Shown one piece after another: positions 41,450 to 48,104 of a stretch of DNA of 64,000 nt (positions are counted from its first letter, which is position 1; each line of letters opens with the position of its first letter). Origin of the DNA: a virus (lineage: Duplodnaviria > Caudoviricetes); the IMG/VR virus record IMGVR_UViG_2728369266_000003, positions 1,258-65,257 of that record. The stretch is one strand, 5' to 3'. The notes below the pieces were generated by a model. The model was not told the DNA's origin and ran no database searches. It was given only the letters and a program-made list of their open reading frames with translations. A program made the translations under genes and the position numbers.

Positions 41450-41468
41450 AACTGTGCGGCTAGTGATT

Positions 41469-41503
41469 GGCCCCGCATCTCTTCGGAGGTGCGGGGCCGT
41501 TTT
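41469..41503 (+). terminator. Intrinsic terminator ending late operon
   Basis: 13-bp stem, cUUCGg loop, T-tract. Confidence 0.9.
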
Positions 41504-41565
41504 CGTATGCCCACCTTGGGTTGCTCGTGACTCTGTCAAGCCCGCACGCCGGGCAGCAGCGGTCC

Positions 41566-42543
41566 ATGGCCCGGATCGAGCCGATGCTGGCGAAGCTCGT
41601 CGAGAAGATTCCCGAGCCGGGCGCCTGCCGGGGCGGCTGCCGCTACGAACCCAAGCTCGACGGCTTCCGGGCGCTCGGAACGGTCGCAGAGCGGGGCGCC
41701 GGCCTGACCTCCCGCACCGGCAAATCCCTGAGCGCGGTCTTTCCTGAGGTGCGCGATGCGCTGTTCGACCGGTTGCCGGAGTGCACGGTGGACGGGGAGA
41801 TCGTTCACTGGACCGGGCAGCGATTCGACTTCAACGCCCTGCTCAGGAGGAACGCGACCAGGGGCGGGTGGCGGGCACTGGAACTCGCCGCGCAGGAACC
41901 CGCCTACCTCATCGTGTTCGATCTTCTCGAAATCCAAGGTGAGTCGCTGCTGCGCCGACCCCTGACCGAGCGCCGTGGTCGCCTGGAGGAGGTCTTCGCC
42001 GACGTGCCGCGCCCGTCGCTGATCCAGCTCGGGATGCAGACCGCCGACGTGGAGGTGGCGCGGGAGTGGGTGGAGGCGCTGGGACCCCTCGGTGTGGAAG
42101 GTCTGGTGATCAAAGCCGCCGACGGGGCGTACACGCCCGCGAAGCGGGGCTGGTCGAAATGGCGGATCCGCGACACGATCGACGTGATCGTCGGCGGCGT
42201 CACCGGGAAGGCGACGTCCCCCCGCGAGCTGGTGCTCGGACGCTACGACACCGCAGGCAGGCTGGTGATCGTGGGCCGCTCCACACCGCTGCGCACCGCC
42301 GAGGCCGCCGACCTCGCCGGGCGACTCCACCCGGCCGGCCCACACCACCCCTGGCCGGAGACCCTGCCGCCCCGGTGGGGGAGCCGCACCCGCACCCGGT
42401 ATGTGCGGGTGCGCCCCGAGCTGGTGGTGGAGGTGTCAGCGGACGTCGCCCAGGACCAGGGGCGGATGAGGCATCCGGCCAGGTACGTCCGCCCCCGCAA
42501 CGACGTGGGGCCGGAGGACGTGCCAGTCGTCCCCGAACGGTGA
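41566..42543 (+). CDS. ATP-dependent DNA ligase (LigC-like)
   Basis: EPKLDGFR, VDGEIV, IVFDLL, EGLVIK; OB domain ELVVEVS. Confidence 0.93.
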   Translation: MARIEPMLAKLVEKIPEPGACRGGCRYEPKLDGFRALGTVAERGAGLTSRTGKSLSAVFPEVRDALFDRLPECTVDGEIVHWTGQRFDFNALLRRNATRGGWRALELAAQEPAYLIVFDLLEIQGESLLRRPLTERRGRLEEVFADVPRPSLIQLGMQTADVEVAREWVEALGPLGVEGLVIKAADGAYTPAKRGWSKWRIRDTIDVIVGGVTGKATSPRELVLGRYDTAGRLVIVGRSTPLRTAEAADLAGRLHPAGPHHPWPETLPPRWGSRTRTRYVRVRPELVVEVSADVAQDQGRMRHPARYVRPRNDVGPEDVPVVPER

Positions 42544-42573: not shown

Positions 42574-42912
42574 ATGGCTCTCCCTGCCGGCTACCCGCGC
42601 CCCCAGCCGCCCCTGGACCCGCCCGCAGACGCGCCGCCGGACGCCGTGCGGGTCGAGGAGTTCGTGCCTGAGGACGTGGCGCCGTGGTATCCGCCTGGTG
42701 GGGACACGGCGGTGTGGGTGCGGACCGGCGGCGTCTGGCGGTATGGGTGGGTGCACGGCTGGAAGCGCCACCCGGGCGGGAGGTGGGGGGCGTGGATCGG
42801 GCTCGCGCACGTCGACGGGGAGCATCCGGCGGGGCTGTGGGCGTGGTGGTGGTGGGACGGGGTCAGCGTGCGGCGGCGGCAGTCGTCCGGCGCTGCGAGC
42901 ACTCCGCGATGA
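42574..42912 (+). CDS. Trp-rich SH3-like protein, probably leaderless and SOS-induced
   Basis: VWVRTGGVWRYGWVHGW...W. Confidence 0.7.
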   Translation: MALPAGYPRPQPPLDPPADAPPDAVRVEEFVPEDVAPWYPPGGDTAVWVRTGGVWRYGWVHGWKRHPGGRWGAWIGLAHVDGEHPAGLWAWWWWDGVSVRRRQSSGAASTPR

Positions 42913-42916
42913 TCAT

Positions 42917-42943
42917 CCGCCCTTGATCCACGCTCAAGGGCGG
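42917..42943. terminator. Hairpin between convergent units
   Basis: CCGCCCTTGA / TCAAGGGCGG. Confidence 0.7.
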
Positions 42944-43115
42944 GGTTCATCCTGGGGAGCTGGGCGGGTCAGTGCTCCACGAGTTCGGGGCGGTGGTGCT
43001 GGACGATCCCCTCCTCACCGGGGCGCTCACAGGGTGTCGTCCCAGCAGTCTTGGCACACGTCATCCCCGGTGATCGTGGACTCCATCCGCTCGGAGGCGG
43101 CCCTGTCCGGCCGGG

Positions 43116-44534
43116 TCACGCCGGGGCGGGTTCGGCGATCTCGGCGATCTCGTTGCAGAGCCTGCGCGAGGACCACAGGACCAGGCCGACCAGGTCCACG
43201 ACGTGGCTGTTGCTGGTTTCGTGGGCGGCGACCTTCATCGCCTGCTCCGCGGCGTCGGTCACGAAGGCGGTGAACAGGTCGACGGCCTGGCGCTCGGCGT
43301 CGTCGCCGCCGCGCAGCAGCCGCCGCAGGTCGTTCTCCCACTGCGGGCGGGCGGCGTCGACGGCGGCCCGCGCCGCTCCCGCCGCGACGGGTTCGCGGTC
43401 CCGCTGGTAGGCCTTCGCGGTGACCTCCCCGATGCCGTCCTCGGCCGTCTTCAGCATCGCGACCAGCCGCCCCAGGCGGGCGTGGGCGGCCGTCTCGGGC
43501 ACCAGCGCGGAGGCGGGCAGCGCGATCTCGCGGCGGGTGGTGTCTTCCACCGTCGCCCCGTGGAGGTTGGTGATCATCTCGGTGGTCTCCACCCCGATCA
43601 GTCCGTCCACGTGGTGGTGGCGCGCGGCCAGCCACCCCGCCACCGCCGGCGCGGCGTCGGCGTCTTCGTACAGGCCGGGGACGGTGAACTGCAGACCCCG
43701 GGCGCAGACCTCGCGGTGGCTCGCGCTGGCGGACTGGCCGCGCCCGATCAGCGGGTCGGGGTGGGACTTGAGGTCATCCCCGGCGCACACCACCACGGTG
43801 CGCACCATCCCGTCGTCGTCGCGAACCAGGCGGATGCGGCGGCTGGGCCAGCACAGGTAGTCCACCATCCCGGCCGGGGAGCGGTCCTTGCGGCGCTCGG
43901 TGACGGGCTCGGTGCGCTCCCACCAGCCCTCGCCGCGCGGCGCCTCGGCGCCGGGGGCGAGGTTGAGCAGCAGGGTGCGGCCCAGGTCGGGGCCCAGCAG
44001 CCGGGTGTGGGTGCGGCGCCCCACCGACCCCAGCGGCACCCCGGCCTCACGCCCGCCGCCGTGCTTGCCGCGGATGCCGCCGGTGTCATAGGCGTGGCAC
44101 CACACCAGCCACCGGGCCGCCTCGGCCGGACTCAGGGCGGTGGGGCGCGCCCAGGTCATCCCGCCGCCGCCGGCCCGCCCGTAGGCGGTGATCTTCTCCA
44201 CCGGGTTGAGGGTGCCCTCCACCGGGTCCTGGGCGAAGGGGCGGTCGGGGTCCAACAGCCGCCAGCGGCCGGCCCCGATGCGCTCCAGGGCGTCCAGGGG
44301 CAGCCCGCCCCGGTACAGGTCGCCCCACCGCCCATCGTCCACGGGCCCGCACAGGCGGTGGGCCACCGCCAGCAGCAACCGGAACAGCGCCACGGTCAGC
44401 GTGGGGTCCTCGGCGCATACGTCGCGGATCGCCCCGGCATCCTCCAGCGCCTGGCGCACCCCCACCTCCCCCACCCGCCCGTCGGCGTAGACCACCGGAA
44501 TCCACGGGTCGGTGAACAGATCCAGGTCACGCAT
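43116..44534 (-). CDS. cas8e: Orphan type I-E Cascade large subunit homolog (Cas8e/Cse1/CasA)
   Basis: DLFTDPWIPV, ALFRLLLAV, RPFAQ, LSPAEAARWLV..HAYDTGGI, LGRTLLLNL, YLCWPSRRIRL match Cse1 motif order. Confidence 0.85.
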   Translation of the reverse strand: MRDLDLFTDPWIPVVYADGRVGEVGVRQALEDAGAIRDVCAEDPTLTVALFRLLLAVAHRLCGPVDDGRWGDLYRGGLPLDALERIGAGRWRLLDPDRPFAQDPVEGTLNPVEKITAYGRAGGGGMTWARPTALSPAEAARWLVWCHAYDTGGIRGKHGGGREAGVPLGSVGRRTHTRLLGPDLGRTLLLNLAPGAEAPRGEGWWERTEPVTERRKDRSPAGMVDYLCWPSRRIRLVRDDDGMVRTVVVCAGDDLKSHPDPLIGRGQSASASHREVCARGLQFTVPGLYEDADAAPAVAGWLAARHHHVDGLIGVETTEMITNLHGATVEDTTRREIALPASALVPETAAHARLGRLVAMLKTAEDGIGEVTAKAYQRDREPVAAGAARAAVDAARPQWENDLRRLLRGGDDAERQAVDLFTAFVTDAAEQAMKVAAHETSNSHVVDLVGLVLWSSRRLCNEIAEIAEPAPA

Positions 44535-45006
44535 GGTCGGCCGCCCGCAGGACCGTGACGCCCTCGGCCTCGCCCTGGCGCACCCAGCCGCCCGCGGCGG
44601 CGTACCCGGCGGCTTTCAGCGCGGCGTCACGGCCGCGCCCGTCCAGCGCGATCACCTCCACCGACGCGGGGTCGTGCACACCGAACCCGTCGACGTCCAT
44701 GATGTGCAGCTCCTCGCCGAAGTCGTAGGCGACCCGCGTGACCTCGATGTCCTTCTTCATCTGCTGGTAGTCCCTCCAGATCTGGCTCAGCCGGGACTCC
44801 TTGAGGCCCAGCTCCTGCGCGGCGCGCCGCTGGGCGGCGGCCTTGCGGATGCCGAGCTGGCGCTCGACCTCCGCGCCGACGATGCGGGCCCGCTCGGCGC
44901 CGACGGCGTGGCTGACCTCGGCGGCGACCTCGGCGAGGACCCGCAGCCGCTCGGGCGCCTCCAGGGCGCCGATCGCCTCCCAGTCGATCGTGTAGTAGCT
45001 GCTCAC
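44527..45006 (-). CDS. HTH-containing protein with extra C-terminal domain (Aca-like position)
   Basis: QRRAAQELGLKESRLSQIW; 8-nt overlap with cas8e start. Confidence 0.75.
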   Translation of the reverse strand: MSSYYTIDWEAIGALEAPERLRVLAEVAAEVSHAVGAERARIVGAEVERQLGIRKAAAQRRAAQELGLKESRLSQIWRDYQQMKKDIEVTRVAYDFGEELHIMDVDGFGVHDPASVEVIALDGRGRDAALKAAGYAAAGGWVRQGEAEGVTVLRAADHA

Positions 45007-45359
45007 GCGTAGACCTCCTCCAACTCGTCCTCGGCGGCGTCGGCGTCTTCGCTGTCGCCGCCGACGGATGCCGCCCATGCGTCGCCCTCGGGGGTGCGGT
45101 GGGCGGGGCGGGCGTGCAGCACGGTGCCCAGGCGGGTCAGGGCGGCCTGGTAGAGGCGGGTGGCGATGCCCTCGCCCCGGTAGGGGGAGGCGGTCTCGAC
45201 GTTGGCGATCACCAGCGTGTCCATGGCCACGTACAGTTCCGAGGCGATCTGGCCGGTGTCGGTGCGGGCCTGGAATCGGTGGTAGTCGGTGGCCTCGCCG
45301 GGGTAGGGCGCGACTGCGTAGGTGATCTCGTAGGCGGTGCCGTGTGCGGTGATGATCAT
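45003..45359 (-). CDS. GNAT-family acetyltransferase with acidic tail
   Basis: IANVET..PYRGEGIATRLYQAA (acetyl-CoA motif A), RTPEGDAWA. Confidence 0.82.
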   Translation of the reverse strand: MIITAHGTAYEITYAVAPYPGEATDYHRFQARTDTGQIASELYVAMDTLVIANVETASPYRGEGIATRLYQAALTRLGTVLHARPAHRTPEGDAWAASVGGDSEDADAAEDELEEVYA

Positions 45360-45391
45360 CTGGCGCTCCCTGGTCCGTGCCGACACCCATA

Positions 45392-45420
45392 AATATAGTC
45401 CCGCTAAAGATTTTTGTCTA
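45392..45420 (-). promoter_or_regulatory. Housekeeping-sigma promoter for GNAT-HTH-cas8e operon
   Basis: TAGACA-N17-TATATT in an AT-rich patch. Confidence 0.75.
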
Positions 45421-45650
45421 GGGGGGCTACACGCGGGGTTGGACCAGGATGGTCAGCCGTCCGCCATGGGCGTCCGATCCGTCACCACACGCCCACTCCG
45501 TGCACCTATGCCGGATCTTTACCCGAGGTGATCTACCTCGGCGCAGCGCCGTCTGCCTATGCTCCAGATCCCCTCGCAGGGCGGCCCCCGGTGGGACGTG
45601 CAGGGCAGCCGCGCCAGGGAGCGCGTTCGGCCCCTTCTCCGGACGCGCAA

Positions 45651-45683
45651 CCGCCCCGGCCCACCTCTCCAGGGCCGGGGCGG
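45651..45683 (-). terminator. Terminator isolating upstream leftward operon
   Basis: CCGCCCCGGCCC / GGGCCGGGGCGG. Confidence 0.7.
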
Positions 45684-45693
45684 ACTTCACCAT

Positions 45694-46404
45694 CTACTCG
45701 TAGGGGTCTCGGTCATAGCCGGGGCGGAAGGTCACACCACGCTCCTGGATCATCTGACACACCTTCACCAGTGCCGCCCTCGCGTCGGGGGACGCGTCCC
45801 GGGTCATCGCGCGCACCTCGTCACGCAGGAAACGCCGCTCAGCCCGCTCGATGGACTCACTGTCTCGTAGGACCAGGGTGAGGATGTCAGCCAGCAGCGG
45901 ATCCTGCTGCTCTTCGGTCTGGCCGCATGCGATGGCGTAGTGGTGCAGGACCGAATCCACCAGCGTCTCGACCGCTGCCTGGCGGTCCCCTCTGGGGATG
46001 GGCCGCCCTGAGGGGCGGGGCCGGTCGGCCACCGCTCGTGCTCCGGGGTTAGCTTGCCGTTCCGTTGGGGTGATGGGGCGGGGCGGCAGGCCGCAGGCGG
46101 CCCGGATATGGTCTTCGCCGTCGCGGCACCACCAGCATTCCGAGGTGCAGCGCACCACCAGGTCGGGCGGGCCGGCCTCTGGTTCGTGGATGGCGCCGAC
46201 CCAGTACCCGTGTACGGTCCACCCGCCCAGCGGCGCCAGGTCATCCACCTGGGTGGGGACCGATTCGCCGTCACGGTGCAGGGAGTGCACCCACATCGGC
46301 TCGCGCCCCGGCCAGCGGAGCCACGTCCGGCCCTCGCGGTCGACCCGCGTGGCGACTGGGGCCAGAGTGGGGGTGTGCCAGAGGGCCACCGGGTGCCCAG
46401 TCAT
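45694..46404 (-). CDS. Hypothetical protein with CxxxCxxC...H...C motif
   Basis: ATGA coupling. Confidence 0.65.
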   Translation of the reverse strand: MTGHPVALWHTPTLAPVATRVDREGRTWLRWPGREPMWVHSLHRDGESVPTQVDDLAPLGGWTVHGYWVGAIHEPEAGPPDLVVRCTSECWWCRDGEDHIRAACGLPPRPITPTERQANPGARAVADRPRPSGRPIPRGDRQAAVETLVDSVLHHYAIACGQTEEQQDPLLADILTLVLRDSESIERAERRFLRDEVRAMTRDASPDARAALVKVCQMIQERGVTFRPGYDRDPYE

Positions 46405-46721
46405 AATGTGTGCTCCCATTCTCGTTCTCGCCCGCGCCGCATTTCGATCTTCACCCACTTGCCGGTGGACCTCCGCATGGACTGAACGTAGGCATACCCG
46501 TCTCGGAATTCGGTGCCGTTGGGTAGCACCAGCCTGAGGTTGACGGATCGGCCGATGTGGGTGGAGTCCCCACGAACCTTCCATCCCTGGACAAGGATGC
46601 GGTTGCGGCCGAGATCCACGGGCGGGTCGAACAGGTAGATGACTGTGCTGGTGCCATCGCGCCAGTACGCGGTGACCTCGCCGTAATGCTCCCGCTTGGG
46701 CTTGTCTGGTTGGTCGGTCAC
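46401..46721 (-). CDS. Hypothetical protein
   Basis: GGAGG SD. Confidence 0.6.
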   Translation of the reverse strand: MTDQPDKPKREHYGEVTAYWRDGTSTVIYLFDPPVDLGRNRILVQGWKVRGDSTHIGRSVNLRLVLPNGTEFRDGYAYVQSMRRSTGKWVKIEMRRGREREWEHTL

Positions 46722-47152
46722 GGGACCCTCCTCAGTGTGGCGCCACCGCAGCTCAGCAGATTCTCAGCGTCGTGGGACCCAGTTCGCTCCACCACGGGCT
46801 CGGCGATGTCTCGGTGGGTGATGGTGGTACGCCACGCCCCGAGTCGGGCCTGGAGTAGCAGCGCGACGCTGGGTGCCCGATGGCGTCCTCCAGCGCATCC
46901 GACCGCGACCCTCACATGACCTCCAGAAGGGCCGGACTGCATGGCGGCCACGGTCCGGGCCGTAGCGCGGATGAGGTGCGGGATGCCCGGGGTGTTGCGG
47001 ACAGCATCGCGCACGGCTTTGTCGTGGGCGGTCATGTAGCGGAGTTCAGGGGCTACATGCGGGTCCCGAAAGTGGTGGCGCAGGTCCACGGTGATGTGGG
47101 CGTCGTCGGGTGGTGGCCCGTGTAGGTAACCGAAGCTGATGATTTCAATCAT
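46718..47152 (-). CDS. RapZ C-terminal-like domain protein
   Basis: ISFGYLHG, DLR.HFRDP, VAVGCAGGRHR. Confidence 0.85.
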   Translation of the reverse strand: MIEIISFGYLHGPPPDDAHITVDLRHHFRDPHVAPELRYMTAHDKAVRDAVRNTPGIPHLIRATARTVAAMQSGPSGGHVRVAVGCAGGRHRAPSVALLLQARLGAWRTTITHRDIAEPVVERTGSHDAENLLSCGGATLRRVP

Positions 47153-47397
47153 GGCGACGCCTCCAGGGTGAGCTCGGGCGCCCCGCCGAGGGGCGCATAG
47201 AGGGTGATGGTTCCGCACCCGGTCGGACACGACGCACGGAGGGTTATGTCACCGCAGGCCGCGGTGCGGGACTGGAGTGTCCATCCGGACAGGCACCCCT
47301 CCAGGTGGGTGTGGGTGGCCCACTGGGGTTCGGGTGGGGTGGCGGGGGTGCCGAGGGTCTGGTCGGCCAGCTCGGCGGCCCTGTCCGCGGCGCTCAT
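47149..47397 (-). CDS. Hypothetical protein
   Basis: Coupled ORF. Confidence 0.5.
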   Translation of the reverse strand: MSAADRAAELADQTLGTPATPPEPQWATHTHLEGCLSGWTLQSRTAACGDITLRASCPTGCGTITLYAPLGGAPELTLEASP

Positions 47398-47981
47398 GCT
47401 GGCACCGGCACAGCCGCGGCCCGCTGCGCGATCCGCTTCAGGTCCGCCTTGGGGAGGGTGATGGTCCCGAGGTGGGTCAGCCAGTGGCACCACACCGGCT
47501 CCAGCCCCGGGTTCCGCTGCCACTCGTCCTCGGACACATCGCTGCGGGTGTAGGCGGCGGTCCGCTCGGCGAGCGTCTGGAGGGTGGCGGCGGTGACCCA
47601 GCGGGCGTCCCGCGTCTCCCCCTTCTGTGGGCGGAGTGGGTACCCCTCGAACACGGTGGCTTCGTAGATCCACCAGTAGTGCCCCGCCTCACCGGAGTGA
47701 CCGTCCGGCAGGTACTGGGACGGGCCGCACCGGTTGGGACGCCACCCCTCGGCGACGAGGCGGTAGTCACTGACCGTCTGCCCGACCTCCTCGCTGACTT
47801 CGAAGGTGAGCGCTTCCTCGGGGCCGTCGAACTCGTCGAAGACGTGGCCGGCGACGGGCGCGACCCCGCTGGGTCCGTCGCCGTCGCGGGTGATGACGAC
47901 GTACTCGGGGCCGTCGTCGCCGGGGCGGGTGATCAGGATTCCGACGCTGTGCTGGTCGCAGCGCCACGGGTCCTTGGGCAC
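47394..47981 (-). CDS. Nudix hydrolase (divergent)
   Basis: CDQHSVG, PVAGHV...EVSEEVG Nudix-box variant. Confidence 0.75.
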   Translation of the reverse strand: MPKDPWRCDQHSVGILITRPGDDGPEYVVITRDGDGPSGVAPVAGHVFDEFDGPEEALTFEVSEEVGQTVSDYRLVAEGWRPNRCGPSQYLPDGHSGEAGHYWWIYEATVFEGYPLRPQKGETRDARWVTAATLQTLAERTAAYTRSDVSEDEWQRNPGLEPVWCHWLTHLGTITLPKADLKRIAQRAAAVPVPA

Positions 47982-48104
47982 AGGATCCTCCTCACGGCGG
48001 CTGCCGTCGATGATGACGGCGCCCACCGACATGTGGGTGGGGGTGGACCGTCCGGTCCCCCCGTCCGCCCCACACACGTTGGGGCGGCGGAGGCACTGGC
48101 ACGG

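Follow-up and report, generated by a model that had tools for sequence, protein, structure and literature searches.

An orphan cas8e gene behind a recurrent GNAT–HTH cassette in a prophage-like element: an anti-CRISPR candidate

What does a lone Cascade gene do in a phage-like element, directly behind genes for a small acetyltransferase and a putative DNA-binding protein? The question is raised by a three-gene operon in the IMG/VR record IMGVR_UViG_2728369266_000003 (Duplodnaviria; Caudoviricetes), of which we analysed a stretch of 64,000 nucleotides (nt; positions 1,258 to 65,257 of the record), referred to below as the window. The operon encodes a GNAT-type protein (P0001), a helix-turn-helix (HTH) protein (P0002) and Cas8e (P0003), the large subunit of type I-E Cascade. 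An initial annotation, made from the letters of the sequence, had read it as an acr-aca-like unit, that is, an anti-CRISPR (acr) operon with an anti-CRISPR-associated (aca) regulator, in which the GNAT might acetylate a host Cas protein or the viral Cas8e as a decoy. The insulated operon, the HTH gene and the orphan cas8e of that proposal were retained by our analysis; the link between the GNAT and CRISPR was not. With about even confidence, we read the locus as an operator-controlled GNAT+HTH cassette with a cargo slot, which here holds an orphan cas8e as an anti-CRISPR candidate.

An orphan cas8e in a host with a type I-E system

P0003 was assigned to Cas8e by three concordant matches (Pfam CRISPR_Cse1, E = 1.1e-51; TIGR02547, E = 1e-32; PADLOC Cas8e, E = 5e-51). 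It has 472 amino acids (aa) compared with 549 for the Cas8e of its host, to which it aligned over the first 320 residues only, at 32% identity (BLASTP). By sequence it is an orphan, shortened and divergent Cas8e with a diverged C-terminal part. P0003 also shows the features by which Katz et al. (10.1101/2023.06.24.545427) define orphan viral cas genes: it lies on a viral contig, away from any CRISPR array or cas operon, in a host that carries the cognate type. The contig in question (C12, 65,257 bp; the window is G000:C12:1258-65257, nearly the whole of it) contains no other Cse1 match and no type I-E repeat.

The host appears to possess a complete type I-E system. On its contig C9 the sizes and order of the open reading frames (ORFs) fit cas3-cas8e-cse2-cas7-cas5-cas6e-cas1, and an array with 29-nt I-E repeats lies behind them; the genes of this locus were named from ORF sizes, order and the repeat, with hidden Markov model support for Cse1 only. 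About 74 I-E repeats were counted genome-wide, in arrays on C1, C4, C7 and C9. Two spacers match contigs other than C12. One in the C1 array (473-1060, variant repeat) matches the host's own contig C10 (41159-41195) over ~34 nt and is self-targeting, which is compatible with an inhibited or inactive CRISPR system in this cell and is noted as a lead only. Another, from the C4 array, matches C18 (13408-13437) at ~90% over 30 nt; C18, 21 kb long with 69% GC, is possibly a further mobile element.

The proteins closest to P0003 are short orphan Cas8e proteins (48–52% identity) that make up a clade and are encoded on Nocardiopsis and Nonomuraea elements, some of which carry integrases. A tblastn search of phages yielded two weak metagenomic phage matches. 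One Nocardiopsis contig (L031) encodes a 662-aa Cse1 and Cse2 (1-1330) followed by non-cas genes; 5 kb past this pair lies a gene for a short orphan Cse1 with 52% identity to P0003 (6001-7512). Within the window, the third-position GC content of the cas8e ORF (43116-44534) is 0.96 compared with 0.80–0.90 for most genes of the element, and its local GC content of 0.75–0.78 is near that of the host (74%). This composition suggests that cas8e came from a host-like genome.

Contig C12 itself has a GC content of 68.5%, compared with 73–75% in the large contigs of the 7.0-Mb host genome. Its products include a large terminase (TerL), portal and coat proteins of the SPP1 and P22 types, respectively, and a tape-measure protein that contains an NlpC/P60 domain. 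Because these genes are present, we assign it to the tailed phages or phage-like elements; judged by its gene content, it is a temperate, prophage-like element of a high-GC actinomycete. A blastn search of the INPHARED phages with the 2.8-kb locus found no match.

The three genes are supported as an insulated operon under its own promoter (Table 1), and in this respect the initial annotation was confirmed in detail. The proposed promoter matches the consensus at 10 of 12 positions and is the sole such site between 42500 and 46000, where 0.1 would be expected from shuffled sequences. It lies in an AT-richer island with a local GC content of 0.64 (0.72–0.78 in the genes). The overlapping stop and start codons are borne out by the ORFs and by homologs, which back each of the three reading frames, and an alternative ORF of 287 aa (44527..45390) was rejected as an artefact of the high GC content. 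Both hairpins named as insulators are far more stable than shuffled sequences. The upstream one, with a folding free energy of −35.9 kcal/mol (z = −3.9), is probably a terminator or insulator. For the downstream one the values are −31.3 kcal/mol (z = −3.8) on the minus strand and −32.8 kcal/mol (z = −5.1) on the plus strand, and it is a probable bidirectional terminator. A simple terminator scan missed both because neither has a U-tract.

Between the upstream hairpin and the promoter lie ~230 nt (45421-45650), compared with ~40 nt in related loci. Two 14-nt direct repeats (45498-45511 and 45549-45562) were found upstream of the promoter, and an 8-bp inverted repeat (45369-45376 / 45441-45448) brackets it; Rfam gave no match to these repeats or to anything else within 42700-45800.

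Table 1. Coordinates of the operon, its control elements and its flanking genes in the window.
Feature	Position	Strand	Remarks
Promoter TAGACA-N17-TATATT	45420..45392	(-)	sigma-70-type; precedes three overlapping genes
Candidate operator, imperfect inverted repeat	45396..45429	(-)	TAGCCCCCCTAGA (45429-45417) / TCTTTAGCGGGACTA (45410-45396); -35 to -10
P0001, mini-GNAT, 118 aa	45359..45003	(-)	GGGAG Shine-Dalgarno sequence 7 nt upstream
P0002, HTH protein, 159 aa	45006..44527	(-)	GTG start overlaps P0001 stop as GTGA
P0003, Cas8e, 472 aa	44534..43116	(-)	ATG 8 nt inside the 3' end of the P0002 gene
Upstream GC hairpin	45651..45683	(-)	12-bp perfect arms, 9-nt loop; just past the stop of a 296-aa gene
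Downstream hairpin	42917..42943	both	between the operon and a convergent DNA-ligase operon
ATP-dependent DNA ligase	41467-42543		flanking gene, convergent with the operon
RapZ C-terminal-domain-like protein (RapZ_C-like)	46718-47230		flanking gene
Nudix hydrolase	47394-48104		flanking gene

The GNAT–HTH cassette, its cargo and its candidate operator

P0001 scored below the curated cut-off of every GNAT model in Pfam, with sub-threshold matches to Acetyltransf_CG (E = 3.5e-4; 21.1 bits against a cut-off of 30) and Acetyltransf_1 (E = 2.5e-3; 18.5 bits against 20.7); a homolog 42% identical to it, P0016, has a precomputed match to PF00583. As Pfam stayed below threshold, the GNAT call is based on the fold and on the acetyl-CoA loop, R61-G-E-G64-I-A66, in which R61, G64 and A66 (R-x-x-G-x-A) are invariant in 13 homologs. 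The top Foldseek matches of the AlphaFold2 (AF2) model (predicted local distance difference test score, pLDDT, 88) in the Protein Data Bank (PDB) are all GNATs (E = 3e-3 to 5e-2; template modelling (TM) score 0.5–0.57) and include the minimal YjdJ (5i0c) and PanZ/YhhK (2k5t, 4crz). In the ESM Atlas, P0001 matched (scores 0.97, TM 0.65–0.73) short clusters of 104–118-aa phage or Actinomycetota proteins, many of them labelled GNAT. Fold, loop and Atlas placement agree with the first annotation of this gene.

The model consists of four strands, a helix (65-77), a short strand and a second helix (90-99). It has no N-terminal helices, and the N-terminal β1-α1-α2 arm of a complete GNAT fold is missing. 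These features support P0001 as a predicted minimal or truncated GNAT of a phage and actinobacterial mini-GNAT family of ~100–120 aa. It resembles the known minimal GNATs (Acetyltransf_CG/YjdJ, PanZ/YhhK; ~90–130 aa) in its core β-sheet and β4-α3 acetyl-CoA loop. Unlike them, it falls below the family cut-offs and belongs to a family with an acidic C-terminal tail and, in many members, a fusion of the GNAT to an N-terminal HTH_17 domain. The tail (GGD-T/S-ED ... EEVYA; window 45003-45060) is conserved in the family and disordered in the model; it resembles the protein-docking tails of proteins like the single-stranded-DNA-binding protein SSB. PADLOC, NCBIfam and PHROGs gave no match for P0001, and tblastn against phages and PLSDB plasmids gave one weak match.

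P0002 had no match in Pfam (including Aca2_YdiL), NCBIfam, PHROGs (E < 1e-3) or PADLOC and falls into no named Aca family. Its AF2 model (pLDDT 93.8) comprises a long helix, a three-helix unit (residues 37–87) and a β-rich domain of ~65 aa (88–155). The whole model returned noise only in Foldseek, and the HTH was resolved by VIA-align alone: residues 37–87 superposed on HTH domains of extracytoplasmic function (ECF) sigma region 4, LuxR/NarL and LysR (Z = 6.6; root-mean-square deviation 1.7 Å over 46 residues), and the matches were almost uniformly DNA-binding HTH domains. This structural match bears out the naming of the second gene as an HTH protein; on the model, P0002 is a candidate two-domain regulator with a sigma-region-4-like HTH.

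An exhaustive HMMER search with P0002 returned 25 relatives. The two domains also occur apart, the N-domain with other C-termini and the C-domain as a stand-alone protein of 67 aa or behind other HTHs. In a sample of genomes from the class, the family was present in 8 of 393 genomes of the host's family and in none of 379 from other families. No match was found by tblastn of P0002 against phages and PLSDB plasmids, or by scans of IMG/VR with alignment A2 and with P0019, a homolog described below.

The pair formed by the first two genes recurs. GNAT homologs 58–71% identical to P0001 are always followed by an overlapping gene whose N-terminal 80 residues are ~50% identical to P0002. At least six other phage or ICE-like (integrative and conjugative element-like) contexts hold this pair without an adjacent cas8e. 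They are represented by L004/L005 (a phage-like contig that bears an endolysin gene, plus a partial duplicate of it), L007-L012 (contigs resembling ICEs or plasmids and encoding an integrase and a TrwC relaxase), L013/L014 (a phage contig of 64.8 kb together with a shorter duplicate), G060/L018 (the genome of an isolate from the host's family) and L052-L054 (three short contigs). A scan of genome contigs yielded one carrier, a Microbispora metagenome-assembled genome, which has no Cse1. The gene 3' of the pair varies and may encode a GIY-YIG nuclease (L013/L014), a ROS/MucR protein, a protein with a weak sigma-4 match or proteins of no family; none of the cargo proteins was matched in PADLOC, NCBIfam or PHROGs.

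Two observations concern individual loci of this set. L052, L053 and L054 are independent metagenome contigs that encode the GNAT and an 81-aa HTH protein consisting of the N-domain only, and all of them end ~100 nt later, which suggests strain heterogeneity at the cargo slot. L004 and L005 carry a gene of the Acb2/Tad1-hairpin family (anti-CBASS/anti-Thoeris sponge) adjoining the endolysin gene (L004:12204-12419; L005:11828-12043); it lies ~1 kb beyond the cassette, here an HTH_17-GNAT with its partner, on the opposite strand.

A second orphan cas8e was found on contig L015. There P0019, which is homologous to P0002 over its full length (44% identity, both domains), is encoded by a gene that overlaps the start of an orphan Cse1 gene by 4 nt. 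The L015 Cas8e is 35% identical to P0003 and aligns end to end with a canonical host Cas8e at 38% (E = 3e-82), and on these grounds we consider it an independent capture. No other cas genes are nearby, and the genes downstream of cas8e are not Cascade genes; one of them encodes a Nudix hydrolase, a type of gene that also flanks the operon in the window. The gene ahead of P0019 encodes an unrelated Cys-rich protein of 141 aa and no GNAT. Four loci with a P0002 homolog of full length are known, and in two of them an orphan cas8e occupies the same overlapping position. As orphan cas8e genes are rare, this pairing is unlikely to be due to chance, the count being two.

Among the loci compared, the trio of GNAT, HTH and cas8e genes is unique to the window. 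Since the GNAT occurs with its HTH partner in places that lack cas8e and is absent at L015, it does not behave as a companion of cas8e; the coupling at L015 instead ties cas8e to the HTH protein. In the neighbourhood comparison suggested by the initial annotation, a homolog of the HTH gene was found beside a second cas8e, and the GNAT homologs were found beside none.

The promoters of the window, L052, L014, L018 and L015 can be aligned, including a conserved leader start, GGTGTC/GTGTCAGCAGGG, and a GC hairpin precedes the homologous promoter in L014, L018, L015 and L052. The 296-aa protein encoded upstream of the operon in the window is unrelated to the product of a 288-aa gene in L052. In L052 a perfect 16-nt inverted repeat (CTCTACCCCCCCTAGA/TCTAGGGGGGGTAGAG) spans the −35 and −10 boxes. 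At L015, inverted-repeat arms of 20 nt with 90% complementarity lie over the promoter, and L018 has two 15-nt direct repeats.

No clear palindromic operator had been noticed in the promoter, because relatives are needed for the comparison, and this point has to be corrected. The window contains an imperfect inverted repeat that aligns column for column with the perfect repeat of L052. It keeps the left arm (TAGCCCCCCTAGA); the right arm (TCTTTAGCGGGACTA) has decayed through a change that also improves the −10 box. The promoter is probably operator-controlled and autoregulated.

Competing readings of the locus

From the gene structure, the folds, the conservation of cassette and promoter, the variable cargo and the type I-E system of the host, we infer the following course of events. 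A GNAT translationally coupled to a sigma-4-type HTH protein would form the conserved core, behind a strong promoter with an inverted-repeat operator. A few phages and ICE-like elements share this cassette together with its promoter and 5' leader, and our genome searches place them in the host's actinomycete family only. The site just 3' of the HTH gene would serve as a cargo slot, occupied in the window by the divergent orphan cas8e. The HTH protein would bind the palindrome and repress its own promoter in the manner of an Aca, giving either an early burst of expression or steady low expression from the prophage. Such Aca-like autoregulation is plausible because an HTH homolog is coupled to a second orphan cas8e and inverted repeats lie at related promoters.

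The viral Cas8e would then rival the host Cas8e for the Cas5/Cas7/Cas11–CRISPR RNA backbone of I-E Cascade, or titrate Cas3. The outcome would be complexes defective in reading the protospacer adjacent motif (PAM) or in recruiting Cas3, as for AcrIB3 and AcrIB4. By this analogy, P0003 is most likely directed against the host I-E Cascade, as a defective large subunit. The GNAT is the partner of the HTH protein rather than of cas8e; most likely it would bind acetyl-CoA and modify or modulate the regulator or another target.

Several observations weigh against this reading. Only two of the four loci with a full-length P0002 homolog carry cas8e, and the genes upstream of the nearest orphan cas8e relatives are unrelated to P0001 and P0002. 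The Z score of the P0002 HTH is middling, in a range that VIA-align itself calls common. The window palindrome matches at ~11 of 13 positions with one indel, and repression here could therefore be weak or lost. The genes stand in the opposite order to that of classical acr-aca operons, and they include the GNAT as a second conserved gene. No match to C12 was found among ~50 host spacers, which comprise seven from the C9 array, searched at up to three mismatches, and those of the C4, C9-large and C1 arrays, compared by BLAST. Finally, P0020, a P0002 relative that shares both the HTH and the C-terminal domain, is encoded two genes ahead of terS/terL, a typical place for late-gene activators, and P0002 may therefore activate rather than repress.

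The placement of P0020 also speaks for an alternative that we regard as possible, if on the unlikely side. Here GNAT and HTH protein would make up a phage transcription-control module that acts in trans on genes of the phage or the host, and in which an acetyl-CoA sensor accompanies a sigma-4-like activator or a factor of anti-sigma type. cas8e would be a passenger that came to lie in a permissive, expressed site, either neutral or useful to the lysogen, for instance as a supplement to host CRISPR in defence against competing phages. The best structural matches of P0002 are indeed to sigma region 4, including sigma/anti-sigma complexes, and the L013 copy of the pair lies ~7 kb upstream of a terminase gene. 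PanZ/YhhK, which appears among the fold matches of P0001, is a regulatory GNAT that works by binding. The nuclease that fills the slot in L013/L014 is of the homing type, which indicates that the slot accepts selfish insertions, and Katz et al. (10.1101/2023.06.24.545427) discuss whether viral cas genes might promote immunity when newly captured. However, a neutral site would be unlikely to have received the very rare orphan cas8e twice independently, both times overlapping the stop codon of a gene of the P0002 family. Furthermore, the shortening of P0003 and the divergence of its C-terminal part fit a defective subunit better than a spare one, and the protein falls in a clade of orphan copies on mobile elements.

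We consider it very unlikely that the operon is a dedicated multi-gene anti-CRISPR unit in which an AcrVA5-like GNAT acetylates a lysine of Cascade or Cas3, or the decoy Cas8e, and the HTH protein is its Aca. AcrVA5 is a GNAT anti-CRISPR that acetylates Cas12a. P0001 likewise is a small GNAT-fold protein, in the size class of AcrVA5 and with a conserved acetyl-CoA loop, and it is encoded on a mobile element, co-transcribed and translationally coupled with the orphan cas8e. The host of P0001 has a type I-E system rather than V-A. AcrVA5 was absent from the PDB profile matches of P0001 at E ≤ 10 and from the 50 Foldseek matches listed, a result that still leaves room for a shared fold, and no sequence relation between the two was detectable. 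The model of P0001 also lacks the N-terminal α1-α2 arm that usually shapes the acceptor site.

The distribution of the GNAT follows its HTH partner: it includes the contexts without cas8e and a carrier genome without any Cse1, and at L015 the Cys-rich gene stands in its place. The HTH_17 fusions in many relatives point to a role linked to DNA or to the regulator. The proposed acetylation of a Cas protein or decoy is thus left unsupported beyond adjacency in one genome. We regard the GNAT as a housekeeping partner of the regulator and advise against describing it as an analogue of AcrVA5.

The least probable reading, a reverse-order GNAT-type toxin–antitoxin or addiction pair that stabilises the element and has cas8e as unrelated cargo, recalls the established class of GNAT toxins with DNA-binding antitoxins (TacAT, AtaRT, KacAT) in its tightly overlapping genes for a GNAT and a DNA-binding partner, its autoregulated-looking promoter and its location on mobile DNA, whereas toxins of that class have ~160–180 aa and are preceded by a DUF1778/ribbon-helix-helix antitoxin, and here a 118-aa GNAT without the N-terminal half of TacT-type toxins comes first, Pfam finds nothing in P0002 (no DUF1778 or ribbon-helix-helix domain), PADLOC and NCBIfam give no match, and the GNATs of relatives are fused to an HTH_17 of their own, which would be unusual for a toxin.

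Relation to known systems and wider meaning

The reading as a cassette with anti-CRISPR cargo places the locus between two documented kinds of system. In classical acr-aca operons the variable acr gene lies upstream of the conserved aca gene. Common to them and the operon described here are a strong promoter, the encoding of an HTH protein within the operon, inverted repeats across promoters (here those of relatives) and an HTH family that adjoins varying neighbours. In contrast, the variable gene of the present operon is downstream of the conserved gene, P0002 lies outside the Aca families in Pfam, and there is a second conserved gene, the mini-GNAT, which goes with the N-terminal domain of the HTH protein.

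The second kind consists of orphan viral cas genes, from which anti-CRISPRs are documented to arise and of which Katz et al. (10.1101/2023.06.24.545427) catalogued 358. Anti-CRISPRs of this kind are AcrIB3, a Cas5 homolog; AcrIB4, a homolog of the C-terminal part of Cas8b; and AcrVIA2, a Cas3 homolog; a defective-subunit mechanism was shown for AcrIB3 and AcrIB4. P0003 resembles these proteins in several ways: it is a Cascade-subunit homolog, its phage gene lies apart from arrays and cas operons, the host has the cognate system, and its identity to the host copy (32%) compares with 38% for AcrIB3/AcrIB4. Unlike them, P0003 is a nearly full-length large subunit of subtype I-E, and its gene is driven by a GNAT+HTH cassette rather than a Listeria-type acr cluster.

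An orphan viral cas gene in a regulated anti-defence operon is a known theme. Modestly new are the uncharacterised HTH family that is twice linked to an orphan cas8e and its mini-GNAT partner. If the orphan Cas8e does act as a poison subunit, the viral-cas route to anti-CRISPRs would extend to the type I-E large subunit.

Among Streptomyces-like actinomycetes the prevailing CRISPR type is I-E, and to our knowledge very few anti-CRISPRs are known for Actinomycetota. The HTH family might be used as a marker when actinophages are mined for anti-defence genes. A bolder proposal, which we hold to be doubtful, sees the GNAT+HTH pair as a dedicated platform from which actinomycete phages and ICEs express counter-defence genes. 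P0002 would then found a new Aca-like family with a 3' slot that gathers anti-defence cargo, orphan cas8e in two cases and uncharacterised proteins in others, and the GNAT would act as an acetyl-CoA-dependent switch on the regulator or as a co-inhibitor that modifies Cascade. If this were true, the pair would provide a guilt-by-association marker for anti-CRISPRs and other anti-defence genes across the Actinomycetota.

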